Origin: Candidatus Woesebacteria bacterium GW2011_GWB1_39_10
GTDB lineage: Bacteria > Patescibacteriota > Microgenomatia > UBA8517
Direction: 5' to 3'
DNA: 64,000 nt
Assembly (NCBI GenBank): GCA_000993205.1
Contig: LBVU01000003.1
Coordinates: 161,008 to 225,007, forward strand
Positions 2,375 to 59,626 of this stretch are shown here, piece by piece. Under the pieces are notes generated by a model, which was not told the DNA's origin, ran no database searches, and saw only the letters and a list, made by a program, of their open reading frames with translations. Position 1 is the first letter of the stretch. Each line of letters opens with the position of its first letter. The position numbers were made by a program, and so were the translations under genes.

Positions 2375-3415
2375 ATGAAGATCCTCTGCATTGATACCAG
2401 TTGTGACGAAACAGCGTGTGCTATAACCGAAAACACAAAAATTTTGTCCAATATTATTTGGTCGCAGGCGTCCGCTCACGCTAAATTCGGTGGTGTAATG
2501 CCATCCCTCGCCCAAAGGATGCACGAAGAAAGAATAGACCTTGTCGTAGATAAGGCAATTAAAAATTCAAAATTAATAATTAAAAATTTGGACTGCATCG
2601 CGGTTACAGTAGGACCAGGTCTTTCGATTGCGCTTGGGGTAGGAATTAATAAGGCGAAAGAGTTGGCTCTAAAATACAACAAAAAATTAATTCCTGTAAA
2701 TCACCTTGAGGCTCATGTTCTTTCTCCCTTGGCGAATAACGAGTATCTAGTATCTAATATCAAGTATCCAGCTCTTGGATTGGTGGTCTCCGGTGGGAAC
2801 ACAATTCTAGTCAAAATTAATAAGATCGGAGAATACGAAACTCTGGCCCAAACCGCAGATGACGCGCTGGGAGAGGCGCTAGACAAAGCCGCAAGAATGT
2901 TGGGATTGGGTTACCCGGGTGGCGCGATTTTAGAAAAGTTTGCGAAGTTGGGAGATCCGACAAGATATAAACTTCCAATCCCTATGGTCGGACAGGAAGA
3001 TAGAAAAATTTTTTCATACTCAGGTTTAAAAACTTCAATGATGAGAAAGATACAAGAATTAAGAGTTAAGAATGAAGAAATAAGTAGACAAGACGTTTAC
3101 GACTTGGCCGCTAGTTTCCAAAACGTTGCTTTCTCTCATTTGATCCGTGTCGTGCAGTATGCCATAAGCCATAAGCCATATGGCATAAAACATTTGTTAG
3201 TTGGGGGAGGGGTTTCGGCAAACATTGAAACTAGAAAAAGGCTTCGAAAACTTGGCAAGGAATTTAATATTCAAGTTCACTTCCCCTATTCCAAGAAATT
3301 GACAGGTGACAACGCGGCAATGATTGGAGTCGCCGCTTATTTTAAAGCCAAAAGAGGTGAATTCGTTAATCCTAAAATTATCGATCGAATCCCCAACTTA
3401 AAAATTGGTGGCTAA
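2375..3415 (+). CDS. tsaD: tRNA N6-adenosine threonylcarbamoyltransferase TsaD (Kae1/YgjD family)
   Basis: MKILCIDTSCDETACAI, GVMPSLAQRMHEE, GVSANIETRKRL; start is 1 nt after the upstream stop. Confidence 0.85.
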   Translation: MKILCIDTSCDETACAITENTKILSNIIWSQASAHAKFGGVMPSLAQRMHEERIDLVVDKAIKNSKLIIKNLDCIAVTVGPGLSIALGVGINKAKELALKYNKKLIPVNHLEAHVLSPLANNEYLVSNIKYPALGLVVSGGNTILVKINKIGEYETLAQTADDALGEALDKAARMLGLGYPGGAILEKFAKLGDPTRYKLPIPMVGQEDRKIFSYSGLKTSMMRKIQELRVKNEEISRQDVYDLAASFQNVAFSHLIRVVQYAISHKPYGIKHLLVGGGVSANIETRKRLRKLGKEFNIQVHFPYSKKLTGDNAAMIGVAAYFKAKRGEFVNPKIIDRIPNLKIGG

Positions 3416-3443
3416 TTTTCTCTGATTATATTATAATTCAGCC

Positions 3444-5558
3444 ATGGACCCTCAGTACGATCACACAAGATACGAGTCGAATATTTATGGTATATGGGAG
3501 AAGTCGGGCTCTTTTTCTCCACAGTCCTCTGCTCACGGTTCACCGTTCACTATAATTATGCCCCCACCGAATGCCAACGATCCGCTTCATATCGGACATG
3601 CCAGATTTATAGCTATTGAAGATACACTAATCCGCTACCATCGCATGAAGGGTGAGCAAACTCTATGGCTTCCGGGAAGCGACCATGCAGGCATCGAAAC
3701 TCAGTATGTTTTTGAGAAAAAATTGGCTAAGGAAGATAAAAGCCGATTCGACTTTGACCACGACACTCTTTTTAAAATGATCTGGGATTATGTCCAGGAA
3801 AATACAGGTGTCATGGAGTCCCAGCTTAAAAAGCTCGGGGCTTCTTGTGACTGGAGCAGATTTAAATTCACACTTGACACCGAAATTGTAAAGATTGTTT
3901 ATAAGACATTCAAAAAACTTGAGACTGACGGGCTTCTTTATCGAGGCGAGCGGATTGTTAATTACTGTCCAAGATGCGGTACCGCCTATTCACAACTTGA
4001 GGTAGACTATGTGGAAAGAGACGACAATCTATATTATTTGGACTACGGAACCGTAACCATTGCAACCACCCGACCGGAAACTATATTTGCAGATGTGGCG
4101 GTCGCAGTTAATCCGAAAGATGTAAAATACAAAAAGCTTGTCGGATCAACCGCAAAAATACCGCTAATTAACCGCGACGTTCCGGTAATTACGGATAAGC
4201 TTGTAGATGTAACTTTTGGGACAGGCGCACTTAAGGTTACTCCGGCTCACGATCCTACCGACTTTGAAATAGGAAAATCAAATAAATTACCGCTAATTTC
4301 CGTAATCGATGAAAAAGGCAGGATGACAGGCACGCCGGAGAAATATATTGGCATGAAAGTATTCACCGCCCGTGAAGAAGTGGTTAAAGACCTTGAACTG
4401 GCAGGAAAGATAAAGAAAATTGAAAAAATTCATCATACAGTTGGAGTGTGTTATCGCGATCACGGAATTCTGGAGCCAATGGTTTCAAAACAGTGGTATG
4501 TCAAAGTCGAACCATTGGCCAAAAAAGTATTGACCTCAATCAAAAGCAAAGAAGTTAAGTTTACGGCCAAAAAATATGAAAAGATTGCAATTCATTGGCT
4601 TAAAAACTTAAGGGATTGGAACATTAGCCGCCAAATAGCCTGGGGTATAAGAATTCCTGCGTATAGATGTGGAAGATGTATGGAGTGGACTATCACAGAC
4701 GGTGAAATTCCGACTAAGTGCGACAAATGCGGCAACGGGATTTTGACACAAGACACTGACACTTTTGACACATGGTTTTCTTCCGGACAGTGGCCGTTCG
4801 CTACATTACAAACCACCAACCCGGGGGATTTCGAAAGGTATTACCCAACAAGTGTTATGAATACCGGGTACGACATTCTCCCCTTTTGGGTAATTCGAAT
4901 GCTTATGCTTGGCATTTACACAACAGGAAAGGTTCCTTTTGAAACGGTTTTACTTCACGGACTGGTCCGGGACAAAGAAGGGCTCAAGATCAGTAAATCT
5001 AAAGGAAACGGAATTGATCCTATTCTGATGTCTGAAAAATACGGCGCTGATGCTTTGCGTATGGGACTTCTTTGGGGCGCTTTAGTCGAAAACGACGTGG
5101 CCCTTTCCGAAGACAAAATCAACGGACAAAGAAAATTTGCCAATAAGATTTGGAATATTGCGAGGTTTGTTCTTTCGAACAAACAGAGTGAAAGAGTTAA
5201 AGAGTTAAAGAGTAAAACTAAAAACACGGACGATGAATGGATACTGAAGGAACTCAAAGACACTACAAAGAAGGTTACAAAAGCTCTTGATAAATACAGA
5301 CTTAATGAAGCGACCGAAGAAATCTATGATTTTATTTGGCACAAATTTGCAGATGTTTATATTGAAAAAGCAAAAGAGCCTTTCGATAAAGAGTCCGGTA
5401 AGATAACTGTTCGAAAAGGCGCAATCCCCACTCTCTACAAAGTCCTCGAATCCGGTCTTAAACTCCTTCACCCCTTTATGCCTTTTGTCACGGAACAAAT
5501 CTGGCACGAGATGGGAAACAAGGGTCTTCTAATCACTGCGGACTGGCCGAAGGCGTAG
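3444..5558 (+). CDS. valS: valyl-tRNA synthetase, compact 704-aa form
   Basis: Class I aaRS with HIGH-like motif PPPNANDPLHIGHA, followed by WLPGSDHAGIETQ, DTWFSSGQWPF and KMSKS motif KISKSKGNGIDP. These match the ValRS pattern (PPPN..GxLHxGHA, GTDHAGIATQ, DTWFSS). Confidence 0.75.
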   Translation: MDPQYDHTRYESNIYGIWEKSGSFSPQSSAHGSPFTIIMPPPNANDPLHIGHARFIAIEDTLIRYHRMKGEQTLWLPGSDHAGIETQYVFEKKLAKEDKSRFDFDHDTLFKMIWDYVQENTGVMESQLKKLGASCDWSRFKFTLDTEIVKIVYKTFKKLETDGLLYRGERIVNYCPRCGTAYSQLEVDYVERDDNLYYLDYGTVTIATTRPETIFADVAVAVNPKDVKYKKLVGSTAKIPLINRDVPVITDKLVDVTFGTGALKVTPAHDPTDFEIGKSNKLPLISVIDEKGRMTGTPEKYIGMKVFTAREEVVKDLELAGKIKKIEKIHHTVGVCYRDHGILEPMVSKQWYVKVEPLAKKVLTSIKSKEVKFTAKKYEKIAIHWLKNLRDWNISRQIAWGIRIPAYRCGRCMEWTITDGEIPTKCDKCGNGILTQDTDTFDTWFSSGQWPFATLQTTNPGDFERYYPTSVMNTGYDILPFWVIRMLMLGIYTTGKVPFETVLLHGLVRDKEGLKISKSKGNGIDPILMSEKYGADALRMGLLWGALVENDVALSEDKINGQRKFANKIWNIARFVLSNKQSERVKELKSKTKNTDDEWILKELKDTTKKVTKALDKYRLNEATEEIYDFIWHKFADVYIEKAKEPFDKESGKITVRKGAIPTLYKVLESGLKLLHPFMPFVTEQIWHEMGNKGLLITADWPKA

Positions 5559-6898: not shown

Positions 6899-9511
6899 TT
6901 ATTTTAAAAAGATCTTTTGATAAAAGTCCTTACTCAGAACTGTATTATACTCGAAATTCTCTTGTTTGGTCAAGCTGTGACCTAAATTTATGTTCCAGAG
7001 ATCGTCTGTTACACCGGCCTGTTTCCTGACATATATACCGTAACTGGAAGGAAAACCATTCTCCGAAATATCAGATGTCCAACTAAATTTTATATTTAGA
7101 TCTTGTTGGGGTAAAACCGTAAACCATACTCCAACCTCTTTTCTATTCTTGGCTGTTGTTATCTCCGGGGTAATTTGCTCTTCCGTTCCTCCATAAACCT
7201 TTCTTATTGCCCCCGGTTCTGTATCAACGGGCAATAGAACTCTTAAATAAACACCATAACGCCCGGAAGGTCCCAGTGCGGGACTGGAATTGTTATGGTA
7301 GTTTACATCAAGTGTTCTCTCAATCTTTTTATTGTCTAAATTTACCGAAAAATCAACTTGCCTTGCTATAAAGTAATTAGACTTGTTAAATCCCAGGTTG
7401 GCCTCAACCAGACCAACAAAGTCTTGATAACAGTCCTCCCCGCAAGACAGCTCGCCTATCGCCCCTCCCCATCCCAACATCAAAACGGAGTCTTCCACCT
7501 TGTTGTTGTGGAAATACGCCTGTATGTGCCTTCCATCAAGATTTTCTATAAACGATTTAATCAATCCTCCCTTATTTTTACTATTAGTTTTGCCGATTTC
7601 AAAAAGAAGTTGCCTTGAAAGGGCTGTTAAGAAGCTGGCTTTCTTGTGTGTACCTGGAAAAAAATTATCCTGGACTTCACTTTGAGTTTTTTCATACAAG
7701 TTTTTGTCCGAAATCCCCAAGTTAAAATCCGGAAGAAATACCGGACCAGTAAAACTTAGAATGTCTTTAACTATGTTTAGATCCAACGCCACTACTCCAT
7801 CTACTTTTTGATCAGTTTCCTTATTTAAGAACCACTCCGCTCTTTGAGCTGACGTAGGAAAATCAGGGTCCCAATTAGAATCTCTTAACCACCAGTTGGC
7901 CTGTCCTAAATACTCTTTTATAGGACCGGGTGGTTCTACGTGTCCCTTAAGTTGTCCGTCAGCCGAATAAACGTCGTTAACATTTAACTCACTAAGTCTG
8001 CCACCGTCCAATGAAAGAACTCCATACGAACCGATAAAGCCGCCCGTTGGTCGAAGCTCCATATTGTTCTGAAATAAAACAAGGTAAGTTTTCTTCCGTT
8101 CGTTTCCAAGGATGTCCGACAAGTTTTCAGTTAATGTGATCCCTTGAAGTAGCATGTTTTTATATTTCTCAAAATTGATTTTTTCGTGTAGCAACTTTGG
8201 TAATAATAATTTTGACTGAACTCCATCTTGAGTTTCCGCTTGCATTAGAGATATATCTCTGTACAGAAAATCTACATTTACTTTGATGTTTTTGCCACTC
8301 TCAACCGGGTCATATGTTTTATCGCCCAAAACATTACTAAATAATGTTATGCCGTCGTTCACAAGGGCATTGGCAGACAATATCATTTCCGATGATGTTG
8401 TTCCAACAACAGAAGCAAAGGCCGACTCTTTATAGACTCTACCTATCACAGGAACATTCGTAAACATCCTGCTCGAATTTTTCCCAATTGCGAAAAGAGT
8501 TTTTGCCATCAGAATTGAATTAACCCCACCACTCTTCTGTTTAATAAAATGTTGTTTATAATAAAAATAAAACATTCCCCAACCCGCTATATTTATCAAT
8601 ATTGGAAAAGTCAATATGATCAATAGTAGAAACGAAATTCTTCTTATCGCCTTCTGTCGCTTGTTTTCCTGTTTCGGAATTTTTAATTTGGGGATTGTAA
8701 CGGGTTTTAAAACAACCCCTCTTTGATCCTTATATGTAAACCACCTGAACGTCTCACTCAGACAATAGTTCATGTTTGCATTTACCTTTATAACTTCAAA
8801 GCCTTTTGGAATTTCCCGTATTGGGATGTCTTCCCTGTATTTTAGTTTTATGCCCTTCTCTATTCTTTCGTTTTCCTTCCAATAACTTGTAGCTGATATC
8901 TGTGGCCCCAACAGAAATACTTGTTTACCATAAGGACCGAAAGAAAATACCCATTTAGAAATAATCCTGGCGGCATCTGAAACAAATATCGGATAAAGGG
9001 ACCCCCCAATGCCCAACGATAAACTCCTCATGGTTAAAACCTCAGCAATTAATCTGGATGCTGTCAAGTCGCTGTCTAAATCTATTCTCGGCCCAAACAG
9101 GTCACCTACATAAACAACTGACGTGTTCTCGTTAGGCAACGGTTTGATATCGATTTCGAGATAATAACTTTCATAAGGAAAAATCGCAATAACCCTCGAA
9201 TTGTCTACATTCATCTTCTTGTTAAAGAAAAGCAAATCTTTATAGGTGTCTTGGAGTGATAAAAATCCTGAACAAAAAATTGTGTAGTCGGATCTTATAA
9301 GCGGGGCTTTTTTTAAGGAAAAAGTAGAAAAATTTACTCTATTTAGATGTTGGGTGTTTTCGTCCCATCTTTTAACATTGTCGGATACAATATTAATAAA
9401 ACAATTTTTAGAGAGAAGATTCTCAAGAATGTTAACGGCAAGAAAATTTGGTTCTGCAAATAATGTGACCGTCTGTTTAGACCTCTCTAAAGTGTTTATG
9501 GTGTTTTGCAT
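6899..9511 (-). CDS. large (870 aa) membrane-anchored extracytoplasmic protein, DUF4012-like
   Basis: Internal TM stretch LLLIILTFPILINIAGWGMFYFYY; block LVLFQNNMELRPTGGFIGSYGVLSLDGGRLSELNVNDVYSADG resembles DUF4012 (from memory, not searched). Confidence 0.45.
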   Translation of the reverse strand: MQNTINTLERSKQTVTLFAEPNFLAVNILENLLSKNCFINIVSDNVKRWDENTQHLNRVNFSTFSLKKAPLIRSDYTIFCSGFLSLQDTYKDLLFFNKKMNVDNSRVIAIFPYESYYLEIDIKPLPNENTSVVYVGDLFGPRIDLDSDLTASRLIAEVLTMRSLSLGIGGSLYPIFVSDAARIISKWVFSFGPYGKQVFLLGPQISATSYWKENERIEKGIKLKYREDIPIREIPKGFEVIKVNANMNYCLSETFRWFTYKDQRGVVLKPVTIPKLKIPKQENKRQKAIRRISFLLLIILTFPILINIAGWGMFYFYYKQHFIKQKSGGVNSILMAKTLFAIGKNSSRMFTNVPVIGRVYKESAFASVVGTTSSEMILSANALVNDGITLFSNVLGDKTYDPVESGKNIKVNVDFLYRDISLMQAETQDGVQSKLLLPKLLHEKINFEKYKNMLLQGITLTENLSDILGNERKKTYLVLFQNNMELRPTGGFIGSYGVLSLDGGRLSELNVNDVYSADGQLKGHVEPPGPIKEYLGQANWWLRDSNWDPDFPTSAQRAEWFLNKETDQKVDGVVALDLNIVKDILSFTGPVFLPDFNLGISDKNLYEKTQSEVQDNFFPGTHKKASFLTALSRQLLFEIGKTNSKNKGGLIKSFIENLDGRHIQAYFHNNKVEDSVLMLGWGGAIGELSCGEDCYQDFVGLVEANLGFNKSNYFIARQVDFSVNLDNKKIERTLDVNYHNNSSPALGPSGRYGVYLRVLLPVDTEPGAIRKVYGGTEEQITPEITTAKNRKEVGVWFTVLPQQDLNIKFSWTSDISENGFPSSYGIYVRKQAGVTDDLWNINLGHSLTKQENFEYNTVLSKDFYQKIFLK

Positions 9512-11861: not shown

Positions 11862-12668
11862 TTAGAGAAGATGCAATTTTTTGGCCAGTGGCGTAAGACT
11901 TCCCCATCCGGACATTCCTACTTGCTGCCAAACATTAACAATAGAAAAAACCAGCCAATAAAGAGCTAGGCCGGAGGGAAACTTAAGACCAAAGACCAAT
12001 GTCATCAACGGAAGCATATAAGTCATCGATTGTGTCATTGCCACCTGCATATCGTCTGTATCAGATTTGGTTTTTTTGGCAATTTTTTCTTCAGCCGAAA
12101 GATAAGGAGCTGTTATCTTAACTGATAAAAACTGAGCGACGGTTGCCAAAAGCAAAAAAAGGCCGGGAAGCGCAAACGGAACCCCTGGAACGTTAAACGA
12201 GTCAGGCTTACTCATATTTAAATAAAGAAATTTGGTATTTAATGTCTCATTTTGGGAAAATTTCAAAGCAGGATAAAGCAATTCGTTAAGTTTGGTTGTA
12301 GTTGTAGCATCTGTGGAGAGAGTGCTCGTAAAAACATTAAAAAGAGCTATCAGAATAATAAATTGCAAAATATAGGGAAGGCACCCGGCACCCGGGTTAA
12401 CCTTGTTTTCCTTGTAAAGACTTGCCTGGGCTTGAGAAAGTTTAAGTTTATCTCCTGCGAATTTCTTTTTAATTTTTGCCATCTGGGGTTCAAGAGCTTT
12501 TATTTTCTTCATTGACTCAAGATATGGTTTAGTTAAAGGCCTAAGGAGAAAAATCAAACAGACACTAAAAACAAGAATTGCTACACCAAGATTACCTCCA
12601 AGAATTTTATAGAACAGAATAAGTCCGTTTGTTAAAGGCTGAACCAGTAATAGTGTAAAAATATCCAT
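11862..12668 (-). CDS. yidC: membrane protein insertase YidC/Oxa1
   Basis: LRPLTKPYLESMKKIKALEPQMAKIKKKF, GAGCLPYILQ, multi-TM; synteny with yidD/rnpA/rpmH. Confidence 0.85.
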   Translation of the reverse strand: MDIFTLLLVQPLTNGLILFYKILGGNLGVAILVFSVCLIFLLRPLTKPYLESMKKIKALEPQMAKIKKKFAGDKLKLSQAQASLYKENKVNPGAGCLPYILQFIILIALFNVFTSTLSTDATTTTKLNELLYPALKFSQNETLNTKFLYLNMSKPDSFNVPGVPFALPGLFLLLATVAQFLSVKITAPYLSAEEKIAKKTKSDTDDMQVAMTQSMTYMLPLMTLVFGLKFPSGLALYWLVFSIVNVWQQVGMSGWGSLTPLAKKLHLL

Positions 12669-12689
12669 AAAATTAATTAATAATTAATA

Positions 12690-12758
12690 ATTAAGAATTA
12701 AGAATTAATAAATAAAAAGGCTCTCGCGTCTTTAATTCTTAACTCTTAGTTCTTAATT
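12690..12758. repeat. long AT-rich imperfect palindrome in the yidD-yidC spacer (includes the yidD stop)
   Basis: aattaagaattaagaattaa ... ttaattcttaactcttagttcttaatt; the arms are reverse-complementary with 2-3 mismatches around a GC-rich loop (ggctctcgcgtc). Confidence 0.4.
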
Positions 12759-12982
12759 GAATCCGGTACCGGATTCCATCCAGATCCTCCCCAAGGGTGG
12801 CACTTCAAAACTCTTTTAAAACCCAAGGAAAATCCCCTAGCCGCTCCAAATCTCTCCAAGGCTTCTATTGTATACTCTGAACACGTAGGAGTAAACCTGC
12901 AAGCTTTTCCGAATACTTGTTCAAAAACAGGAGATATTGTTTTTTTATAAAATTTGATTGCTGCGATTAAGAATTTATTCAT
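12746..12982 (-). CDS. yidD: membrane protein insertion efficiency factor YidD
   Basis: GKACRFTPTCSEYTIEALERFGAARGFSLGFKRVLKCHPWGGSGWNPVP. Confidence 0.85.
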   Translation of the reverse strand: MNKFLIAAIKFYKKTISPVFEQVFGKACRFTPTCSEYTIEALERFGAARGFSLGFKRVLKCHPWGGSGWNPVPDSIKN

Positions 12983-13323
12983 CCAGATATCCCTACCTGT
13001 TTAAGAGACGCTTTAACCTCTTTCATTAAATCGGAGGCGGGTGTTCGTGTAATTAACGATTTTGCCAAAAAAACTACGTCAAAACCGTTTCTAACGTCGA
13101 TTGTCGAAGTTCTTACAGCTTCACTCATGGTACGCTTGAACCTGTTTCTGTCTACTGCGTCTTTCGATATTTTTGTAGAAACCACAAAAGCAAATCTGCT
13201 TGGATTAATGTCCTTTCTATCTATATACGCAATCCCAAAACTTACCGACTGAAAGATGGAACCTTCATCCTGAACCTTTTTAAAGTTTTTTGATCCGGTA
13301 AGTCTAAATTTTTTAGAAAGCAT
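12979..13323 (-). CDS. rnpA: RNase P protein component
   Basis: LSKKFRLTGSKNFKKV...; overlaps yidD by 4 nt; directly downstream of rpmH. Confidence 0.8.
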   Translation of the reverse strand: MLSKKFRLTGSKNFKKVQDEGSIFQSVSFGIAYIDRKDINPSRFAFVVSTKISKDAVDRNRFKRTMSEAVRTSTIDVRNGFDVVFLAKSLITRTPASDLMKEVKASLKQVGISG

Positions 13324-13340
13324 ATTATAAAACTGAAGGA

Positions 13341-13481
13341 TTAGACTGTGAGACGTTTCCTACCCTTCTGACGTCTTGCTTTTAAAACTCTTCTTCCGTT
13401 TTTAGTTTTCATCCTCTCTCTAAAACCGTGGACCCTGACTCGCTTGGTTTTGCTGGGCTGATATGTTCTTTTTGTGCTCAT
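13341..13481 (-). CDS. rpmH: 50S ribosomal protein L34 (46 aa; below the ORF-track cutoff, found by hand translation)
   Basis: Translation [46 protein letters not shown]. Confidence 0.85.
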
Positions 13482-13529
13482 ATAATGATTATAACATTTA
13501 TATTCTATATAACAATTATAAAATGGGGC

Positions 13530-13557
13530 TTGACGAATTGTGGATAACTCTATAAAT
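13530..13557 (+). promoter_or_regulatory. putative dnaA promoter with an overlapping perfect DnaA box
   Basis: TTGACG (13530-13535), about 15-17 nt spacer, TATAAA(T) around 13551-13557; the spacer holds TGTGGATAA (13539-13547), the reverse complement of consensus TTATCCACA, which suggests autoregulation. Confidence 0.45.
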
Positions 13558-13655
13558 AGTACAGAGTACAGAGTACTTAGAAATTAGACGGAAACTTCAT
13601 GCCCTGCATCCGATTCTGACTTCAACTGAGTACTGTGTACTTCGTACTAAGTACT

Positions 13656-15026
13656 ATGAATTTAGATTCAGATTTAAAATCAACATGGAAAGAAGTATTA
13701 GACATCATAAAAGTGTCGGTGTCTCCTGCTACCTTTTCTACCTGGTTCACCCAAACCCATCTATCCTCAGCCAAATTAATCGGAGATAGGTTTTTAACTG
13801 AAGTTGGGTGCAGGACTTTTTATACCAAAAACACAATAGAGACTAGATATTTCGGCCTTATTCAAGACTCTTTAAATAAAGCGCTTGGAAAGCAATGCGA
13901 CCTGGTTTTTATTGTTAAGGAAGATGTTGATAAAAAGAATATTAAAAATGAAATACCTACACCTCTTTTTGAGACAGAAACAAAAAACGACAATTTAATC
14001 GAAATATTACGAAAGGCGCGGATTGCTCCGAATTTTACCTTTGAGAATTTTGCGGTCTCTGGTTCAAATCAAATGGCACACGCGGCGGCCCTTGCAGTTT
14101 CTGACAATCTTGGGTCTACTTATAATCCACTTTTTATTTGGGGCGGGGTGGGGGTTGGAAAAACTCATTTAATGGGATCTGTCGGTAATTCTGCCCTTAG
14201 AAAAAACCCGAATCTAAAAATCTTACTCTGCACCGGAGAAAGCTTTACAAACGACATTATTGAGGGTATTAGAAACAAAACCACCCAAAGCTTCAGAGAC
14301 AAATATCGAAAACTAGACCTCCTCCTTCTTGATGATGTCCAGTTTATTGCAGGTAAAGATACTGCTCAGGAAGAATTTTTTCACACTTTTAATGCGGTAA
14401 CTTCCGCCGGGGGGCAGGTGATATTAACAAGCGATAGACCCCCAAGTGAAATTCCAAAACTGGAAGAAAGACTTAGAAGCAGATTTGAAGCAGGGCTAAT
14501 AGTTGATATTGCGCCCCCTGACTTTGAGCTAAGATGTGCAATAACTCAAATCAAAGCCAAAGAAAAAGGTTTTGCACTTGAAATGAATCAGGTACAAATA
14601 ATTGCAGGGAATGTTGATTCAGCTAGAAAAATTGAAGGAGTTCTTATTAAATTAATAACTGAGACAAAGCTAAAGCATCTGGAATTAACCGACGACCTTA
14701 TTGAATCTGTAATCGGAAAAGGGGTTGAGCAAAGTGGAAAAACGGTTAAAAAAGATCCGGCCGACGTAATTGACGCTGTTTCTTCGTACTATCAAATCGG
14801 TAAAAGGTCGCTTCTGGGAGATTCGCGGGCAAGACCCGTTGCCAGACCTAGACAAATATTGATGTATTTGTTGCGTACGCATCTTGGACTTGCTCTGGAA
14901 GAAGTTGGACGACTTTCGGGAAGAGATCATACAACTGTTATGCATGCTGTGGGTAAGATTACCGAACTGGCCACAAACGATGTGCATATCCGTGAGGATA
15001 TAAGTAAAATCAAGTTGGGGATATGA
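13656..15026 (+). CDS. dnaA: chromosomal replication initiator protein DnaA
   Basis: AAA+ box GGVGVGKTHLMGSVGN, LLLDDVQFIAGKDTAQEEFFHTFN, C-terminal DNA-binding LSGRDHTTVMHAVGKI. ATG at 13656; the ORF-track frame opens at GTG 13635. Confidence 0.9.
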   Translation: MNLDSDLKSTWKEVLDIIKVSVSPATFSTWFTQTHLSSAKLIGDRFLTEVGCRTFYTKNTIETRYFGLIQDSLNKALGKQCDLVFIVKEDVDKKNIKNEIPTPLFETETKNDNLIEILRKARIAPNFTFENFAVSGSNQMAHAAALAVSDNLGSTYNPLFIWGGVGVGKTHLMGSVGNSALRKNPNLKILLCTGESFTNDIIEGIRNKTTQSFRDKYRKLDLLLLDDVQFIAGKDTAQEEFFHTFNAVTSAGGQVILTSDRPPSEIPKLEERLRSRFEAGLIVDIAPPDFELRCAITQIKAKEKGFALEMNQVQIIAGNVDSARKIEGVLIKLITETKLKHLELTDDLIESVIGKGVEQSGKTVKKDPADVIDAVSSYYQIGKRSLLGDSRARPVARPRQILMYLLRTHLGLALEEVGRLSGRDHTTVMHAVGKITELATNDVHIREDISKIKLGI

Positions 15027-15039
15027 GGATGTTTTCTTA

Positions 15040-15267
15040 AAGATATATACTTATCAACATTGTCTTTGTTTTTATACACAAAGTTATAAACAAAACAACA
15101 TGACTAGTATTCACACGAATAAATTCCAAATTCCAGATTCAAGATTCCCTTTTTATACACTTATCCACCGATACTACTACTGCTGCTACTAGTTTAATAT
15201 ATAATAATAAGAACTAAGAGCGAAAAAGGAAAAGTGAAAAGTTTCGGACATTTTTACTTATAATTTT
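15040..15267. promoter_or_regulatory. putative oriC core: DnaA-box cluster plus AT-rich unwinding element between dnaA and dnaN
   Basis: 9-mers within one mismatch of TTATCCACA: TTATCAACA (15051-15059), TTATACACA (15072-15080), TTATACACT (15153-15161), TTATCCACC (15161-15169); AT-rich stretch tttaatatataataataag at 15193-15212. Confidence 0.5.
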
Positions 15268-16392
15268 ATGAAACTACAAATACTTCAGGAAAACTTAGAT
15301 AAAGCAATAAATATTGCTTCCAGATTTGCAAGTACCAGGTCTCAGCTTCCGATCTTGGGAAACATTCTTTTTTCCTGTCAAAAAACAAAAGTGATTATAT
15401 CTTCAACTAATCTGGAAATCTCAGTTGCAATATCAGTCGGAGCCAAAGTGGAAGAAGAAGGAGAGATAAGTATACCGGCTAAAGTCATTTCGGAAATCGT
15501 TGCAAACCTTCCCAAGGAAACCATAGATCTTGAATCGGAGAAGGAGCAACTCAAAATAAGCTCTCCGGGATTTACATCTACAGTACTCGGAATGTCTTCA
15601 TCTGATTTTCCTAAAATCCCAAACACAATCGGAAAGGAAAAATCAATAGTACTTCCTAAAGACGACTTTATTAACGCGCTTTCAAGGGTTATATTTGCTT
15701 CATCTCTTGATGAAACAAGACCCGTTCTAACCGGAGTCCTTTTTGTTTTTTCAAAGGATGAACTTAATTTAGTGGCAACCGACGGTTTCAGGCTTTCTCA
15801 GTGTAAGGTTAAATTACCGGATGCAACTGAAAATTTTAAATTAATCTTGCCTAAAAACATACTTCTCGAGATTGTAAGGTCGAGTACTGATTCGGATGAA
15901 ATTACATTTTCTTTCAATGAGAAAGAAAAACAGGCTCTCTTTGGATTTGGTAACACAATTCTCGTGTCACGTCTTTTGGAAGGGGAGTACCCTGACTTTG
16001 AGAAAATTTTACCCAAAGAGTCAAAAATGTCTGTAAGGTTGGATAAAGAAGAGCTTCTGAGAGCAGTTAAGCTTTCTTCTGTGTTTGCCAGAGATTCTGC
16101 AAATATAGTTAAATTTAAAATACTTAAAGAAAGTATCAAAGTTTCTGCGGAAAGCGGGTCTTCCGGTAGTCAGGATACAAAGGTGGACGCGAAGATTGAA
16201 TCTCGTGACTCGGATCTGGAATCTGGGGGGCTTGAGATTGCATTTAACTATCGATTCCTGGAGGATTTTATCCATTCGGTAAAAGGTGAAGAGGTTGAAA
16301 TTAAATTATCTTCAGAATCTGCGGCTGGAGTATTTAAGGATTCGGGTGAGGTTGATTATCTTCATTTAATAATGCCTGTGAAGGTTCAGTGA
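15268..16392 (+). CDS. dnaN: DNA polymerase III beta sliding clamp
   Basis: MKLQILQENLDKAINIASRF..., three-domain length of 374 aa, position after dnaA. Confidence 0.85.
   Translation: MKLQILQENLDKAINIASRFASTRSQLPILGNILFSCQKTKVIISSTNLEISVAISVGAKVEEEGEISIPAKVISEIVANLPKETIDLESEKEQLKISSPGFTSTVLGMSSSDFPKIPNTIGKEKSIVLPKDDFINALSRVIFASSLDETRPVLTGVLFVFSKDELNLVATDGFRLSQCKVKLPDATENFKLILPKNILLEIVRSSTDSDEITFSFNEKEKQALFGFGNTILVSRLLEGEYPDFEKILPKESKMSVRLDKEELLRAVKLSSVFARDSANIVKFKILKESIKVSAESGSSGSQDTKVDAKIESRDSDLESGGLEIAFNYRFLEDFIHSVKGEEVEIKLSSESAAGVFKDSGEVDYLHLIMPVKVQ
16370..16389 (+). repeat. direct repeat copy 1, TAATGCCTGTGAAGGTTCAG (last codons of dnaN)
   Basis: Perfect 20-nt identity with 17631-17650. 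Confidence 0.7.
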
Positions 16393-16401
16393 GCCTGGGT
16401 G

Positions 16402-16430
16402 TTGACAAAAAAGCGCATTTTTGTCATAAT
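16402..16430 (+). promoter_or_regulatory. sigma-70-like promoter inside the inserted cassette
   Basis: TTGACA (16402-16407), 17-nt spacer, CATAAT (16425-16430); ATG of the ATPase at 16443. Confidence 0.5.
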
Positions 16431-16442
16431 TTTGATACAAAA

Positions 16443-17633
16443 ATGATTAAAAGGCTTTTGTTTTACAAACTTCAAAAATATATAGATAGTAAAGAAGCAA
16501 TTGTGATTACGGGTATGAGGCAGGTAGGCAAAACTACACTAATGAGACAGATGTTTGAAGAATTGGGAACGTCTCCTAAACTTTGGTTTGATTTTGACAA
16601 CCCCATTGACCAGAAGATTTTTGAAGACGTTGATTACAATAATATATTTAAGAGGCTGCAAAATCTGGCAAATTCAGACAAGTTCGCTGTTTTTGTTGAC
16701 GAAATTCAAAATTTTCCGGAAATTACTAAAATTATTAAATACCTGATTGACCATTACTCTGTAAAATTTATAGTAACAGGTTCAAGTAACTATTATATGA
16801 AAAATTTGTTTCCGGAGAGTCTTTCTGGAAGAAAGTTTATATTTGACTTGGCTCCGATGAATTTTCAGGAATATTTATATTTTAAGGAGTCTAAAAAAAT
16901 TGTAAAAGTTTTAAAATATTCAGAATTAGATATTGATAAAGTTGTTTTGGAATCAAATATTTTTGATCACAAAAAATACGAGACTTATTATAACGAATAT
17001 TTAGAATTTGGCGGTTTTCCAGGGGTTGTTGTTGCGAAAGATATTGAAGAAAAGAAAATGATTCTTAAAAATATTTTTAAATCGTTTTTTGAAAAGGATA
17101 TTAAAATGTTAAATGATTATTCAGATATACGCGAGCTTAGAGATTTAATATTGCTTCTCGTTCCGAGAGTTGGTTCAATGCTTGATATTAGTAAAATTGC
17201 ATCTGAACTTGGTGTAAAAAGATCTAAAATTTATAGTTATATCGAGTTTTTGCAAGGAATATATATTATCAAATTGCTACCAAAATTTAGCGAGAGCGTT
17301 GATAAGTCGATTGCTGGTGGAAAGAAAGTTTATTTTAGCGATACCGGGTTATTGAGATCTATTGGAGATATAAATGAAGCTCAGACTTTTGAAAATACCC
17401 TTGCTAATCAACTTTCCCAGTATGGCGATGTCTCGTTCTACAATAAAAGAAATACGTCGGAAATCGATTTTATTATTAATAAAGAAATTGCATTTGAAGC
17501 AAAACTGACAGGAACTGAAGATTATTTGAAAACACTTAAAAAACTTTCAAGCTCTTTAAATATTAATAAAGCATTTATAGTATCTAAACACTTTAGGGAG
17601 GAAGAAGGAATAATATCTCCAACTATTTTTTAA
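16443..17633 (+). CDS. AAA+ ATPase of the DUF4143 (COG1373-like) family
   Basis: Walker A ITGMRQVGKTTLMRQM, Walker B FAVFVDEIQNFPE, C-terminal DUF4143-like region. ATG at 16443 (ORF-track frame opens at 16389). Very low GC compared with neighbours. Confidence 0.7.
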   Translation: MIKRLLFYKLQKYIDSKEAIVITGMRQVGKTTLMRQMFEELGTSPKLWFDFDNPIDQKIFEDVDYNNIFKRLQNLANSDKFAVFVDEIQNFPEITKIIKYLIDHYSVKFIVTGSSNYYMKNLFPESLSGRKFIFDLAPMNFQEYLYFKESKKIVKVLKYSELDIDKVVLESNIFDHKKYETYYNEYLEFGGFPGVVVAKDIEEKKMILKNIFKSFFEKDIKMLNDYSDIRELRDLILLLVPRVGSMLDISKIASELGVKRSKIYSYIEFLQGIYIIKLLPKFSESVDKSIAGGKKVYFSDTGLLRSIGDINEAQTFENTLANQLSQYGDVSFYNKRNTSEIDFIINKEIAFEAKLTGTEDYLKTLKKLSSSLNINKAFIVSKHFREEEGIISPTIF

Positions 17634-17650
17634 TGCCTGTGAAGGTTCAG
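17631..17650 (+). repeat. direct repeat copy 2, TAATGCCTGTGAAGGTTCAG (supplies the ATPase stop codon)
   Basis: Identical to 16370-16389. Confidence 0.7.
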
Positions 17651-17658
17651 GGTTAAGA

Positions 17659-18237
17659 TCAATAAGTAACTTCCGTTGACTTACTTAGGGAATAATCTTT
17701 CCCCCATGTAGTGATGAAATTACCGATGGTTGTGGGTTGAAAGTACCATATTTCCAGAAGTCCACCGTCTTTATGTCCGAGGTAAGCTATGCCGTTTGCA
17801 GGATAAACATAAAGATCAAAAGTTGAATTTGGATATTTATTGTAAAGAATATTAGGAGCGGTTCCGTAAATACTTACAATATTAGGAGATTTTATTGTAT
17901 CGTGAGCGCTTACAATTTCTTTAATAAAAACAACTTTGCCGCTCTGAATAATCGCAATATGATGCCTAAGTTCGCTTGTAGATTTATATTCGTCTGTTTT
18001 TTCTGAACCATTGATGGTTGTTCTAAGGGGGGTGCCTAAAATCTTATTTAATTCTTCTTCTGTGGCCACTCCGGGAATAATATCTTTATAAGAAGCTGTT
18101 TTCGGTGCCGGAGTGGGTGAGGCAGAAGGAACATTTTTTTCTCTTGTTAGATAGGCATCGCCGACAATTGCAATGAGAACTATAATTATTATCCAAACCC
18201 AAGCGTATTTTTTAAAAAAAGAAACTATTTTTTGCAT
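17659..18237 (-). CDS. hypothetical N-terminally anchored membrane protein
   Basis: N-terminal TM WVWIIIIVLIAIVG, Pro-rich linker, then a domain with no recognisable motif. Confidence 0.4.
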   Translation of the reverse strand: MQKIVSFFKKYAWVWIIIIVLIAIVGDAYLTREKNVPSASPTPAPKTASYKDIIPGVATEEELNKILGTPLRTTINGSEKTDEYKSTSELRHHIAIIQSGKVVFIKEIVSAHDTIKSPNIVSIYGTAPNILYNKYPNSTFDLYVYPANGIAYLGHKDGGLLEIWYFQPTTIGNFITTWGKDYSLSKSTEVTY

Positions 18238-18269
18238 ACTTATTAATTATATATCACAAGCACTCTGTG

Positions 18270-27560: not shown

Positions 27561-27854
27561 ATGACAATTCCTTCTTTTTTGCAAACATATCTCCCTTCCT
27601 ACGACATTAAAAATCTTGACGGAAAAGATGTTTCTGTCGCAAATGAAATTATTACTAAAGTTCTAAATTTGGGGGATGAAAAAGCTGTTTCCTGGGTTTT
27701 TGACAACTACACAATAGATAAAATACGCGAAGTAGTGGGTAATCCAAAAAAAGGTGTTTGGAACGAGGAGTCTTTAAATTATTGGATGAGCATCCTCAAG
27801 ATTGATCAGGTTCGTGAGAAAAATAAAGCTATTTTAAACATTAACCCTGTATGA
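27561..27854 (+). CDS. small protein partner (putative antitoxin) of the AbiEii-like nucleotidyltransferase, pair 1
   Basis: 97 aa from the ATG at 27561 (ORF-track frame from 27501); overlaps the downstream gene by 4 nt; paralogous to 37230..37496 (shared ..I.E.VLN.G...Y.I..IR.....LNY pattern). Confidence 0.45.
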   Translation: MTIPSFLQTYLPSYDIKNLDGKDVSVANEIITKVLNLGDEKAVSWVFDNYTIDKIREVVGNPKKGVWNEESLNYWMSILKIDQVREKNKAILNINPV

Positions 27855-28489
27855 TTTACAAAAATATTTTAAGCGAAAAACATTTGGAAGTTTTAAAAAA
27901 ATTAAAATCTCTTCCAAAAGGAACATATATGGCTGGGGGAACCGCTTTGGCACTTCAATTGGGACACAGAACCTCCTTGGACTTTGATTTTTGTACAAAA
28001 GAACACTTTGAAACTGAAATTGTTTTAAAAAGTTTTCAACAAGACATACCTAACATAAAAATTGAAAGAGTTGCAAAAGATACACTTATTCTTGATGCGG
28101 ACGGAATAATCGTTTCACTTTTTTATTATCCCTACGAACTCATACGGAATTTGGTATCGTTTGAGAAAATAAACCTGGCTTCAACAGAGGATGTTGCCGC
28201 AATGAAAATAGTGGCAGTGTCTATGAGAGGGAAAAGGCGTGATTTTATTGATGTTTATTATTTATTGCAAAAATTTAGCCTTGAAGAAATCGTAAAATTT
28301 ACAATTGAAAAATATCCAAGCTATCAGCCGATGGTTATTCTTAAGGGTCTTATTTATTTTAAAGATGTCGAGGAAGAAGATTTTTCAAGGGGAATAAAAG
28401 TTTTTGATAAAGATTTTTCTTGGGAGAAAGTTAAGAAAAAGATCTTTGAAGAAGTAGAAAAGTACCAGGCTTCAATAGCAAATATTTAG
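27851..28489 (+). CDS. nucleotidyltransferase of the AbiEii/AbiGii toxin family (type IV TA-like), pair 1
   Basis: LEVLKKLKSLPKGTYMAGGTALALQLGHRTSLDFDFCT, the AbiEii N-terminal nucleotidyltransferase signature. Confidence 0.65.
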   Translation: MIYKNILSEKHLEVLKKLKSLPKGTYMAGGTALALQLGHRTSLDFDFCTKEHFETEIVLKSFQQDIPNIKIERVAKDTLILDADGIIVSLFYYPYELIRNLVSFEKINLASTEDVAAMKIVAVSMRGKRRDFIDVYYLLQKFSLEEIVKFTIEKYPSYQPMVILKGLIYFKDVEEEDFSRGIKVFDKDFSWEKVKKKIFEEVEKYQASIANI

Positions 28490-37229: not shown

Positions 37230-37496
37230 GTGGCAAAAACTCGGTTGATACAAGAATTGGTTAAAAAAAAGCCGTATCTTATATGGCATACCAAAAATTA
37301 TGAACATCTTTCTGAGAGAAGTATTGTAGAAAATGTTTTAAATTATGGAAGCTGGGAGGATTATCTCTTTTTGGAAAAAGTTCTTGGTGTAAAGCAACTA
37401 CGCGGTTTTTTTGAAGACATAAAAAATAAAAAAAGGACAAACCTTAGACCTCAAACAATCAATTATTTTAGCAATTACTTCGGAAAATATGCATGA
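37230..37496 (+). CDS. small protein partner (putative antitoxin) of the AbiEii-like nucleotidyltransferase, pair 2
   Basis: 88 aa; overlaps the downstream nucleotidyltransferase gene by 8 nt; paralogue of 27561..27854. Confidence 0.45.
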   Translation: MAKTRLIQELVKKKPYLIWHTKNYEHLSERSIVENVLNYGSWEDYLFLEKVLGVKQLRGFFEDIKNKKRTNLRPQTINYFSNYFGKYA

Positions 37497-38118
37497 ACAG
37501 CACAAATATAAAGAGGTCTTGTCGAAAAAACAAATTGAACTGTTGGGGCTGGTCAAAAAGTTTTCGGATGAGTTTGGGCTGGTCGGCGGTACCGCAATTG
37601 CCATTCAATTAGGTAAAAGAAGATCAGTCGATTTTGATTTGTTTACAACTTCTGATTTTGACAGTGATCACATTAGAAAAATTATCAGAGAAGAATTTGA
37701 AATACAGTCTGTTTTAGTTGAAATTCCGGGGGAACTTACGGTGATTGTTAATGGTGTCAAGCTTACTTTTTGCAAATATCCTTTTAAAATTACCTTTACT
37801 GAGGAATTTGAAGATGTCATTAAAATGCCGGATTTATTAACTCTTGCCGCAATGAAGGCCTTTGCATTAGGCAGACGCTCAAAATGGAAAGATTATGTGG
37901 ATTTGCACTTTATGTTTAAAGAATGTCAGTTTTTAAGAGTTGTAAAAAGGGCAGGTGAACTATTTGGAGGAGAATTTAACGAAAAATTGTTCAGAGAACA
38001 ACTTTCGTACTTTAACGACATGGATTTTTCTGAGGAGGTTGACTATTTGGAAGGCTTTGAAATAAGTGATGAGTCAATAAAAGAAAAACTAAAAGAAATT
38101 AGTTTGCAAAAGGATTAA
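37489..38118 (+). CDS. nucleotidyltransferase of the AbiEii/AbiGii toxin family, pair 2
   Basis: IELLGLVKKFSDEFGLVGGTAIAIQLGKRRSVDFDLFT; paralogue of 27851..28489. Confidence 0.65.
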   Translation: MHEQHKYKEVLSKKQIELLGLVKKFSDEFGLVGGTAIAIQLGKRRSVDFDLFTTSDFDSDHIRKIIREEFEIQSVLVEIPGELTVIVNGVKLTFCKYPFKITFTEEFEDVIKMPDLLTLAAMKAFALGRRSKWKDYVDLHFMFKECQFLRVVKRAGELFGGEFNEKLFREQLSYFNDMDFSEEVDYLEGFEISDESIKEKLKEISLQKD

Positions 38119-40229: not shown

Positions 40230-40337
40230 TTATAAAATTATTCTAATTGACGTAATTATACTAGAAAATTGTTCTAATTATTTTAATTATACTAATTATT
40301 CTAAATAATACCCAACACCCAGTTTCCAATTTAGAGC

Positions 40338-40768
40338 AATTAGAAATTAGAATAATTAGGTTAATTTACCCATCTTCTGGTAAATCGAATTAAATATTAA
40401 GTTTAGCTCTTTTGCTTCTGTCCAGATAACTTTTATTTTCTCTTTTTGCCCAGGACAAGCCGTTGCCAGCATTCTTAGAAAATGTTTTGACTCTCTTGCC
40501 TCCTTTTTGCAAATTCCAATTTTATGCTTAAAATCTTTACCACTTTCTGCGTCGTCTGCTTCGCAATAATTTGCACCGACACTTGTTGAACATCTCACCA
40601 ACTGGCTAACTAGGGGGTCTGTAATTATACTTTTGGACAATTCTTTGCAGAACTTAATTACATTTTCTCCAAACTTGGCAGTTCTTTCTTCCAGGTCATA
40701 TTTTTTTGAAGCTTCAGACATTGGTTTTTATTTAGGTCAATTAGGAATTAGAATAATTAGGTTAATTG
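40338..40768. repeat. cassette E: 29-nt direct repeats (28/29 identical) flanking four-helix-bundle gene copy E, plus an inverted partial copy at about 40293-40305
   Basis: aattagAaattagaataattaggttaatt at 40338-40366 and aattagGaattagaataattaggttaatt at 40740-40768; the first copy contains the gene's stop codon; ctaattattctaa at 40293-40305 is the reverse complement of the core. Confidence 0.55.
40356..40721 (-). CDS. four-helix-bundle protein (23S rRNA IVS protein / Avd-like), copy E
   Basis: LVRCSTSVGANYCEADDAESGKDFKHKIGICKKEARESKHFLRMLA. Confidence 0.7.
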   Translation of the reverse strand: MSEASKKYDLEERTAKFGENVIKFCKELSKSIITDPLVSQLVRCSTSVGANYCEADDAESGKDFKHKIGICKKEARESKHFLRMLATACPGQKEKIKVIWTEAKELNLIFNSIYQKMGKLT

Positions 40769-59554: not shown

Positions 59555-59626
59555 TCCCCTGTAGCTCAATGGTAGAGCAGAATCCTGTTAAGATTAAGGT
59601 TGCTGGTTCGAATCCAGCCGGGGGAG
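59555..59626 (+). tRNA. tRNA-Asn (anticodon GUU)
   Basis: Acceptor UCCCCUG/CGGGGGA, D-arm GCUC-AAUGGUA-GAGC, anticodon loop CUGUUAA, T-arm GCUGG-UUCGAAU-CCAGC, discriminator G. Confidence 0.75.

Follow-up and report, generated by a model that had tools for sequence, protein, structure and literature searches.

A one-gene ATPase–nuclease cassette between 20-bp direct repeats at the 3' end of dnaN in a Woesebacteria genome, with repeat-flanked relatives in bacteria of the candidate phyla radiation

Insertion of nuclease-encoding genes with long target duplications was described for restriction–modification (R-M) systems by Furuta, Abe and Kobayashi in 2010 (PMC2853133), following Nobusato et al. 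(2000, Gene 259:99). It was reported for type I–IV systems, including solitary mcrA and orphan methyltransferases, with repeats of ~45 to >400 bp that often overlap the 3' end of a neighboring gene; most cases are in naturally competent species, and DNA breakage was suggested although no mechanism was identified (PMC2853133). Here we analyze a comparable locus in a stretch of 64,000 nucleotides (the window) of contig LBVU01000003.1 from Candidatus Woesebacteria bacterium GW2011_GWB1_39_10, a member of the candidate phyla radiation (CPR). The unit in question is a single gene for an ATPase with AAA_14 and DUF4143 domains, which lies directly behind dnaN between two copies of a 20-bp sequence. 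With a probability of roughly 55%, window positions 16390–17630 are a horizontally acquired single-gene cassette whose insertion at the end of dnaN was guided by homology, in the manner of a Campbell-type integration.

The gene itself is related to PDC-S01, a candidate single-gene defense system that was found by 'guilt by embedding' (PMC12988326). According to the same source, PDC-S01 joins an ATPase to a PD-(D/E)xK domain and ranks fourth in frequency among defense types across prokaryotes (PMC12988326). Of eight candidates challenged with T4, T5 and T7 in E. coli, four reportedly protected, and PDC-S01, though included, was not one of these (Payne et al. 2024, 10.1101/2024.01.29.577857; PMC12988326). 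The PDC-S01 literature searched, whose coverage is incomplete so that an earlier description is possible, does not mention flanking repeats or repeat-flanked mobility.

The 20-mer TAATGCCTGTGAAGGTTCAG is present at 16370–16389 and 17631–17650, both on the + strand, with 0 mismatches and a copy-to-copy distance of 1,261 bp. A sequence-only reading of this DNA had placed the repeat at these two positions, with the left copy encoding the last DnaN residues and the right copy supplying the stop codon of the ATPase; all of this proved exact, and no third copy exists in the window even at ≤3 mismatches. The locus is composed of the following features.

15268–16392, + strand: dnaN, encoding the beta clamp, 374 aa (TIGR00663, 3e-81; three Pfam DNA_pol3_beta domains)
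16370–16389, + strand: left direct repeat, TAATGCCTGTGAAGGTTCAG, DnaN codons ..I M P V K V Q
16390–17630, + strand: inserted cassette, 1,241 bp unique (1,261 bp with one repeat copy), guanine-plus-cytosine (GC) fraction 0.297; empty site in L001
16402–16430, + strand: predicted sigma-70-type promoter, TTGACA-17-CATAAT with a TG extension (11/12 consensus matches; position kept in homologous cassettes)
16403–16426, + strand: palindrome overlapping the promoter, TGACAAAAAAGC/GCATTTTTGTCA, 12+12 nt, also written TGACAAAAAAGCGCATTTTTGTCA
16443–17633, + strand: AAA_14 plus DUF4143 gene, 396 aa (Pfam profiles, motifs, PADLOC PDC-S01 match)
17631–17650, + strand: right direct repeat, opening with the ATPase stop codon TAA (17631–17633)
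17651–17656, + strand: GGT TAA, the ancestral dnaN end (Gly-stop) in displaced position, equivalent to GGC TAA at the empty site
17659–18237, − strand: convergent 192-aa gene (p192), function not assigned, the original right-hand neighbor of dnaN

The left repeat makes up the final 20 nt of dnaN before its stop codon, and the stop itself, TGA at 16390–16392, is supplied by the opening three bases of the insert. Short as it is, the repeat has sharp limits: gapless extension stops at 24/26 (16364–16389 versus 17625–17650), and the flanks, compared over 80 nt on each side of the copies, resemble each other no more than shuffled sequence does, a comparison that rules out a longer repeat beyond 20–26 bp. 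Apart from the AT-rich background, nothing favors a chance repeat or an assembly artifact, which we regard as already refuted. The chance expectation for the 20-mer is 0.01, two or more matches were obtained in 0/100 shuffles, and the same two copies with the same spacing recur in five independent metagenome assemblies (L017–L021). An assembly artifact is excluded because the structure is shared by these five assemblies and by deposited genomes and because the 20-mer is present once at the empty site of a complete chromosome.

That empty site came from a one-genome-per-species scan with the window DnaN, which yielded 16 genomes (L001–L016) of Woesebacteria/Microgenomates-type CPR bacteria, none of which (0/16) has the ATPase after dnaN. 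In the closest relative, the complete chromosome CP066686.1 (L001; DnaA 94% and DnaN 91% identical), a single 20-mer is found at 7103–7122, dnaN ends in ..GTT CAG GGC TAA (..VKVQG*) and a convergent p192 homolog (77% identical) follows within a few bases. The right junction of the window, CAG|GGT TAA GATCAATAAGTAAC.., corresponds to this ancestral dnaN tail plus intergenic sequence. The pair, which is the only clean filled/empty pair, supports an insertion of 1,261 bp (1,241 unique plus one repeat copy) at the end of dnaN. A relative with a single 20-mer and with dnaN abutting the p192 homolog was the very check proposed by the sequence-only reading, whose insertion at the 3' end of dnaN is now supported by empty site, composition and domains. 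Among the genomes retrieved, none combines an ATPase behind dnaN with a missing repeat and a similar composition; the only other occupied site, on contig L102, has a 22-bp repeat of its own. 'Target-site duplication or site-specific insertion' had been offered as the two origins of the footprint: the insertion footprint holds, and either of the two may have produced it.

DnaN lost only its terminal glycine, the stop codon now being the TGA of the insert, so that the earlier statement that its C terminus is preserved applies up to the last residue and fails for the glycine. The loss is probably harmless, because relatives differ in what follows MPVK(V/I) (VKI*, VKV*, VKVQS* and VRVQG*). Three sister lineages at 91–92% DnaN identity were sampled; L001 and L002 are without the cassette, and in the third, L107, no cassette promoter is present in the 50 nt past dnaN, where the contig ends.

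The insert contains a single open reading frame (ORF) and no transposase or integrase domain. Its 5' part, 53 nt from the left repeat to the ATPase ORF, holds the promoter and the palindrome; the latter is probably an operator, which would suggest autoregulation. As had been anticipated from the letters alone, the consensus promoter lies within the insert and the ATPase gene is markedly AT-richer than its surroundings: its GC of 0.294 is the lowest of the 25 window ORFs of at least 250 aa (mean 0.402, standard deviation 0.036), with a GC at third codon positions of 0.257 versus 0.364. No second copy of the ATPase exists in the window, and no known RNA was found in 12500–19000. Across homologous cassettes no conserved ends were found, including the left end. 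A classical insertion sequence or DNA transposon was rejected, as no transposase domain is present and terminal inverted repeats scored no higher than shuffled controls in 29 junction pairs of family cassettes. Among window ORFs of at least 180 aa, the only recombinase lies 42 kb away at 59594–61105 (− strand), a large serine recombinase with Resolvase, Recombinase and Zn_ribbon_recom domains.

The encoded protein belongs by profile to the AAA_14 plus DUF4143 ATPases (COG1373), as the earlier assignment to AAA+ proteins with DUF4143 had it: PF13173 (AAA_14) matches residues 17–145 at 9.2e-31 and PF13635 (DUF4143) residues 217–354 at 1.5e-22, both above gathering scores. In an alignment of 38 sequences, the window protein and family proteins 59–79% identical to it, the Walker A motif G24-M-R-Q-V-G-K30-T31 and the Walker B residues D86-E87 are invariant. 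A C-terminal motif D342..E352-x-K354 is also conserved, with D342 in ≥90% of the sequences and E352 and K354 invariant. The AlphaFold model (pLDDT 89, pTM 0.88) consists of a P-loop domain, helical and winged-helix domains and a C-terminal alpha-beta-beta-beta-alpha-beta unit (H312–327, E330–335, E339–345, E349–354, H359–371 and E376–381). D342 and E352/K354 are on adjacent strands of this prediction, so the C terminus has the PD-(D/E)xK arrangement of a predicted nuclease. DUF4143 is listed within the PD-(D/E)xK superfamily with its function not known (Steczkiewicz et al. 2012, PMC3424549).

The modeled fold is nearest to STAND/NLR-type sensors, not to known transposition ATPase–nuclease pairs, and the protein can be described as a predicted STAND-like AAA+ ATPase with a winged helix and a PD-(D/E)xK domain. 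The comparison set comprised the STAND/NLR-like NTPases SSO1545 (2fna), PABY2304 (2qen), CED-4, plant resistosomes and Avs5; unlike these, the window protein has no repeat-type sensor domain and ends in a small PD-(D/E)xK domain. No solved structure for the AAA_14–DUF4143 family was found by sequence search.

Among the PDC-S01 models of PADLOC, the protein matched PDLC04787 (4.2e-59) and six others, and the window gene has the same ATPase plus PD-(D/E)xK architecture as a single-gene unit. It differs from PDC-S01 in its setting, being neither within nor beside a defense system but between dnaN and p192. We regard it as a candidate for phage defense or for a purely selfish gene. A 27%-identical family member on the Arcobacter cloacae plasmid pACLO (L126, 2441–3700) lies between cas3 and cas4 of a type I-B CRISPR-Cas operon, and no flanking repeat was detected around it. 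Phage carriage was not found: no relative with the family's two peptide patterns is present in IMG/VR, and GenBank phage records gave nine distant matches only, at ≤29% identity.

A second dnaN is occupied at the same position. The sole close relative of the window ATPase in a collection of 5.8 billion proteins, P0003 (79% identical), is encoded on L102, whose DnaN is 61% identical to that of the window, while relatives at 91% are empty. In L102, dnaN ends in ..CAC ATA ATC ATG CCT GTG AGA GTC TAA and is followed by a near-identical promoter and palindrome; the ATPase ends in ..GTT TTT, followed by TAATAATGCCTGTGAGAGTTTAG and by homologs of p192 (66%) and of p970 (75%), the gene after p192. The 22-bp repeat (20/22) has its own sequence, and in both genomes the right repeat starts exactly at the ATPase stop codon. 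The dnaN end and the displaced copy of L102 show three differences (ATC/ATA, GTC/GTT and TAA/TAG), all silent in dnaN. In each genome the non-coding right copy resembles that genome's own dnaN and not that of the other.

This conserved synteny of dnaN, ATPase, p192 and p970 might point to an ATPase that was ancestral after dnaN and was precisely deleted through the repeat in other lineages. Recombination between the repeats would yield exactly the empty site of L001, and in a slowly evolving family (~60% identity across the CPR) a pair at 79% could be old. We nevertheless consider this very unlikely. Losses would be needed in L001, L002 and 14 more distant genomes, L107 has nothing in its 50 nt, and the ATPase gene is a compositional outlier. 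Moreover, the right repeat, although non-coding, still matches at 20/20 positions in the window and at 20/22 in L102, each like its own dnaN, while cassette groups that appear vertically inherited (same flanks; ATPases 73–86% and flanks 49–89% identical) have no detectable repeats. Because the repeats resemble their own dnaN and vertically inherited groups lack them, the window and L102 are read as two separate, fairly recent insertions at one conserved target rather than as an ancient insertion with losses.

Repeats around these genes extend well beyond dnaN, and the family-wide claims that follow are limited to CPR bacteria. A metagenome scan with the family alignment returned 80 further loci with ATPases 57–65% identical, most of them on short metagenome contigs. 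When 300 nt upstream of the start were compared with 300 nt downstream of the end, the longest exact match was 20–66 bp in 16/80 loci, its sequence differing from locus to locus; in 398/400 trials with mismatched locus pairs the match was ≤14 bp. Local alignment detected repeats of 20–298 bp (81–100% identity) in 24/76 scorable loci including the window, and repeats longer than 30 bp in 19/24 loci scoring ≥40, plus five divergent paralog cassettes. With near-duplicate loci removed, 300 nt required on both sides and a score of ≥40, repeats flanked 19/47 ATPase genes versus 8/54 neighboring ORFs of similar size. The eight control positives were six divergent AAA_14 plus DUF4143 genes, one DDE transposase and one DNA-alkylation repair gene, and the corrected comparison is 19/47 ATPase genes versus 2/48 non-ATPase neighbors (Fisher p = 1.5e-5). 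Related CPR cassettes are shown to be mobile, with ~40% of loci having locus-specific repeats of 20 to ~300 bp.

Inserts are mostly 1.2–1.4 kb, or one gene. The minimal 5' part of 53 nt, seen in the window and in L025, contains promoter and palindrome only; most homologous cassettes printed have the palindrome, typically TTACAAATnTGCGTAAATTTGTAA, 25–35 nt before the ATG, with an equivalent in L102. In about one third of the cases, the stop codon and the right boundary are no more than ~8 nt apart. No common motif was found among the repeat sequences of different loci. Of 30 repeat-flanked cassettes, 12 have a repeat overlapping the 3' end of an adjacent ORF or tRNA, namely dnaN (two genomes), tRNA-Cys in L108, several uncharacterized ORFs and, as identified by Pfam, genes for a GH100-like enzyme, a LamG-domain protein, a LigT-like protein, a pyridoxal phosphate-dependent enzyme and mannose-6-phosphate isomerase. 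Within real flanking genes, 33/49 copy-to-copy differences fall on the third base of a codon (p = 1e-6; 23/36 when the largest case is left out). AT content is higher in the ATPase than in the flanks at 49/51 loci, and the two compositions are correlated (r = 0.86).

Individual repeats differ in quality. In a search for an empty-site relative of L090, which has the longest coding repeat (298 bp), the nearest ortholog was 79% identical, and the one identical contig breaks inside the repeat. In L088 the 'repeat' is a hairpin terminator whose second copy is equally readable as inverted, and is doubtful; that of L085, present in a third, incomplete copy, may predate the insertion as a repetitive element. 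Microsatellites with an 8-bp unit make up the repeats of L050/L053 and L076; the unique cores of these repeats match, and chance insertion between existing repeats is possible. In L076 (800–6500), the unique core of the spacers is flanked by (GGTGAAAC)n and (ACAGTCCT)n microsatellites, and a similar 8-mer repeat flanks the L050/L053 cassette. The window also contains AT-rich 7-mer runs (AATTAAG-like), at 12672–12716 and in five other places.

Mobility is further indicated by a clade of ATPases 83–89% identical to one another that occupy unrelated flanks at a dozen or so sites (L024, L028, L031, L033, L035, L038, L039, L043, L054, L059, L065 and L071), and by arrays. L076 contains three AAA_14 plus DUF4143 genes, 23–28% identical, and an AbiEii gene, separated by a module of 82–142 bp that is 78–93% identical, with an ATPase_2/DUF234 gene after the last module. 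In L108, three divergent AAA_14–DUF4143 genes lie between pheS/tRNA-Cys and dnaB, the first of them (2632–4404) beside tRNA-Cys and delimited by a repeat of the 3' end of this tRNA (35 bp, 31/35 identical), with no integrase. Cassette pairs are found in L044, L042, L025 and L116. Tandem gene duplication was rejected as the source of the arrays, the paralogs being 23–29% and the spacers 78–93% identical. As the spacers are far more alike than the proteins they separate, the arrays are products of successive insertions at one target.

Integration at a 3' end that is reconstituted in the process, as at dnaN and at tRNA-Cys in L108, is the classical footprint of an integrase, and a non-autonomous cassette could be served by a tyrosine-type integrase encoded elsewhere, with the 20-mer as the att core on a circular cassette. 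Use of the same site in two divergent genomes and cassette arrays separated by repeated target fragments would also fit, and integrase-less satellites in tycheposon islands resemble such cassettes. This possibility is quite unlikely in our estimation. No integrase is encoded in the cassette or among ORFs of at least 180 aa in the 64-kb window save for the large serine recombinase 42 kb off, and the att sites of serine recombinases share a few bases of identity. Across loci there is no common repeat motif and lengths reach ~300 bp, unlike the core of one recombinase. Integrase-borne elements and the cassette are alike in using the 3' end of a conserved gene that stays functional, with repeats derived from the gene end and mostly synonymous differences, and a duplicated, intact 3' end is found for dnaN (with the glycine lost) and for tRNA-Cys in L108. 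They differ in that the cassette is 1.2 kb with one gene and no integrase, and repeat lengths and sequences are unrelated between loci. Phage 21, which integrates in icd, carries a replacement 3' end of its target gene.

Alternatively, the protein might itself drive the insertion. An ATPase–nuclease that makes staggered breaks, followed by gap repair, would generate true target duplications of 20–300 bp, and the cassettes would then constitute a new one-gene class of transposable elements. It is the only protein encoded and has a conserved PD-(D/E)xK motif and a DNA-binding winged helix. Repeats are strongly enriched around the family, including ~25%-identical paralogs, and that of the window is perfect and sharply bounded. 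Close relatives at many unrelated sites, each with its own repeat, are accommodated with ease, since new targets pose no difficulty, and R-M insertions have been suggested to share DNA breakage as their common factor (PMC2853133). We take this to be unlikely. There are no conserved ends or terminal inverted repeats for an enzyme to recognize and no apparent ruler, as repeats of 20 to ~300 bp would need breaks up to ~300 bp apart, and reuse of the same site is left unexplained. The fold, as noted, is nearest to sensors rather than to transposition enzymes. In addition, the AbiEii gene of L076 is bracketed by the same spacer module as the ATPases, and all R-M types share the footprint (PMC2853133), so the insertion process looks independent of the cargo. 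The further proposition that PDC-S01 genes are not primarily defense genes at all but autonomous one-gene elements catalyzing their own insertion, with long variable target duplications, is doubtful; if true, the abundance of PDC-S01 and its 'embedding' in defense loci would be consequences of mobility.

In the homology-guided insertion that we favor, a target-identical patch, the same as the conserved dnaN end, would travel beside the cassette on a circular or concatemeric intermediate. A single crossover between patch and chromosome, perhaps assisted by RecA or by the cassette's own nuclease, would duplicate the patch, leave dnaN intact to its last codon and move the old dnaN tail downstream; the resulting repeats would permit precise excision. 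The first arrival at a new site would need some illegitimate joining step, so that rare founding events would be followed by homology-guided spread, the window event being of the latter kind. Such a model explains the reuse from dnaN to dnaN, the arrays and the lower bound of ~20 bp. It also accounts for the preference for gene 3' ends, because only a patch that reaches the gene end leaves the gene intact. The bias toward third codon positions fits a copy that evolved as a functional gene end elsewhere, since a dead remnant would gain changes blind to position. Independently of mechanism, the comparisons show an insertion with an empty site, a single-gene unit, target-derived variable repeats and no element-encoded classical recombinase.

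Several points weigh against homology guidance. The dozen or so unrelated sites would each need a new homology patch, for the acquisition of which the model has no explanation; staggered breaks are the simpler account here. For homologous recombination, 20 bp of identity would be about the minimum length (the minimal efficient processing segment). The third-position bias could reflect later allelic replacement of the functional copy. Occupancy of the same site rests on two genomes only (n = 2). No empty allele was found within the same species, as 13/13 contigs with the window's own DnaN carry the filled 374-aa form, and free circular or excised cassettes were not seen among the short contigs. 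One very recent gain or loss of a paralogous cassette is repeat-free: L082 (2005–3915) and L088 (3914–3915) have 97–99% identical flanks and differ by an extra 442-aa AAA_14–DUF4143 gene, which lies directly upstream of the resident cassette's promoter, with 19 nt replaced; this implies more than one route of insertion or loss. Finally, only 1/4 non-CPR plasmid homologs, that of Treponema, is repeat-flanked.

Among described systems, the R-M inserts with long duplications are the closest to the cassette. Both are nuclease-encoding, defense-type units between direct repeats with a single copy at a related empty site; both lack transposase, integrase and terminal inverted repeats, vary in repeat length from tens to hundreds of bp, often overlap gene 3' ends and differ in GC from the host. 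The window cassette departs from them in its cargo, one STAND-like ATPase–nuclease gene with no methyltransferase, in the occupation of the same site in two divergent genomes, in the arrays and in its CPR hosts. Its 20-bp repeat is below the 30-bp cut-off used for R-M inserts (PMC2853133). Judged by the definition of Furuta et al., the locus has the empty site with one repeat copy and an insert of <20 kb without a mobility gene, and it has neither a duplication of >30 bp nor restriction and modification homologs. In the literature found, such mobility is described only for R-M systems, and both the cargo and the CPR hosts are an extension.

Target duplications of 19–26 bp are known from IS1630 (cited in PMC2853133). 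The 20 bp of the window repeat lie inside this range, and the cassette shares with IS1630 a duplication of ~20 bp and variable length; IS1630 has a DDE transposase and defined ends, whereas the window cassette has neither. The duplications of IS1634 are likewise long and variable. Integron cassettes are also single-ORF units in co-oriented arrays with short repeated elements. They differ from the arrays described here, in which every cassette carries a promoter, spacers come from the target and are specific to the locus, and no attC-like palindrome follows the ORF. An integron gene cassette was accordingly rejected, the right boundary being the stop codon with no palindrome and no integron integrase being found among window ORFs of at least 180 aa. 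For a free-standing homing endonuclease gene, the 20–22-bp repeats at both occupied sites are contrary to duplication-free insertion, and recurrent occupation of one conserved target is seen in two genomes (window and L102) only.

The surroundings of the cassette are those of a replication origin, in the order rpmH, rnpA-like and yidD-like ORFs, yidC and dnaA–dnaN, where rpmH was taken from the annotation of the homologous contig L019 and the rnpA- and yidD-like ORFs were assigned by eye. Cumulative GC skew has its minimum near 13.6 kb, which places the cassette ~3 kb from the likely origin. Downstream of it, p970 has an HEVTHH (HExxH-like) motif near its C terminus and a GC-rich, Ala/Gly-rich stretch at ~19200–19950. 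A comparison of L002 (CAZBTH010000004, 7150–8700) with window 17659–19300 gave a p192 homolog 39% identical and a C-terminal third of the p970 homolog 31% identical, with DnaA and DnaN 91–94% identical to those of the window. Given this difference, the region just after dnaN looks like a hot spot of recombination or replacement. A 16/17 match to the dnaN-end sequence TTCATTTAATAATGCCT at 42994–43010, in a SpoIID-domain ORF, is probably due to chance.

Elsewhere in the window, a 38-nt direct repeat (35/38) at 40329–40366 and 40730–40767 brackets a single 121-aa ORF (40356–40721, −), which lies among small paralogous membrane/pilin-like ORFs and by eye is like a four-helix-bundle '23S rRNA intervening-sequence protein'. 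Positions 40329–40767 would be a second repeat-flanked one-gene unit of the window. AbiEii-type toxin-like ORFs are at 27851–28489 (+) and 37489–38118 (+), AbiEii being also found inside the L076 array. At 21187–24762 (−), a TraG/VirB4-like P-loop ATPase is interrupted by an intein with a LAGLIDADG homing endonuclease (Intein_splicing 7.8e-18; LAGLIDADG_3 4.2e-19), and a PrgI-like ORF is at 25967–27028.

Such an insertion is unusually clean in the window: both the filled and the empty site are available, the 20-bp repeat is perfect, and the cassette targets the end of an essential replication gene without damage to it. A poorly understood mode of mobility without a known mechanism is thus extended to a new cargo and to a new part of the tree. 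The 'guilt by embedding' by which such genes were nominated may partly reflect insertion behavior and not defense function, which calls for caution. PDC-S01/DUF4143 genes are reportedly among the most abundant unexplained defense candidates of prokaryotes and occur across many CPR lineages, and promoter-plus-ORF cassettes offer a testable handle on their spread in reduced genomes. In such genomes, which have few classical mobile elements, compact accessory genes may spread as repeat-bounded cassettes.

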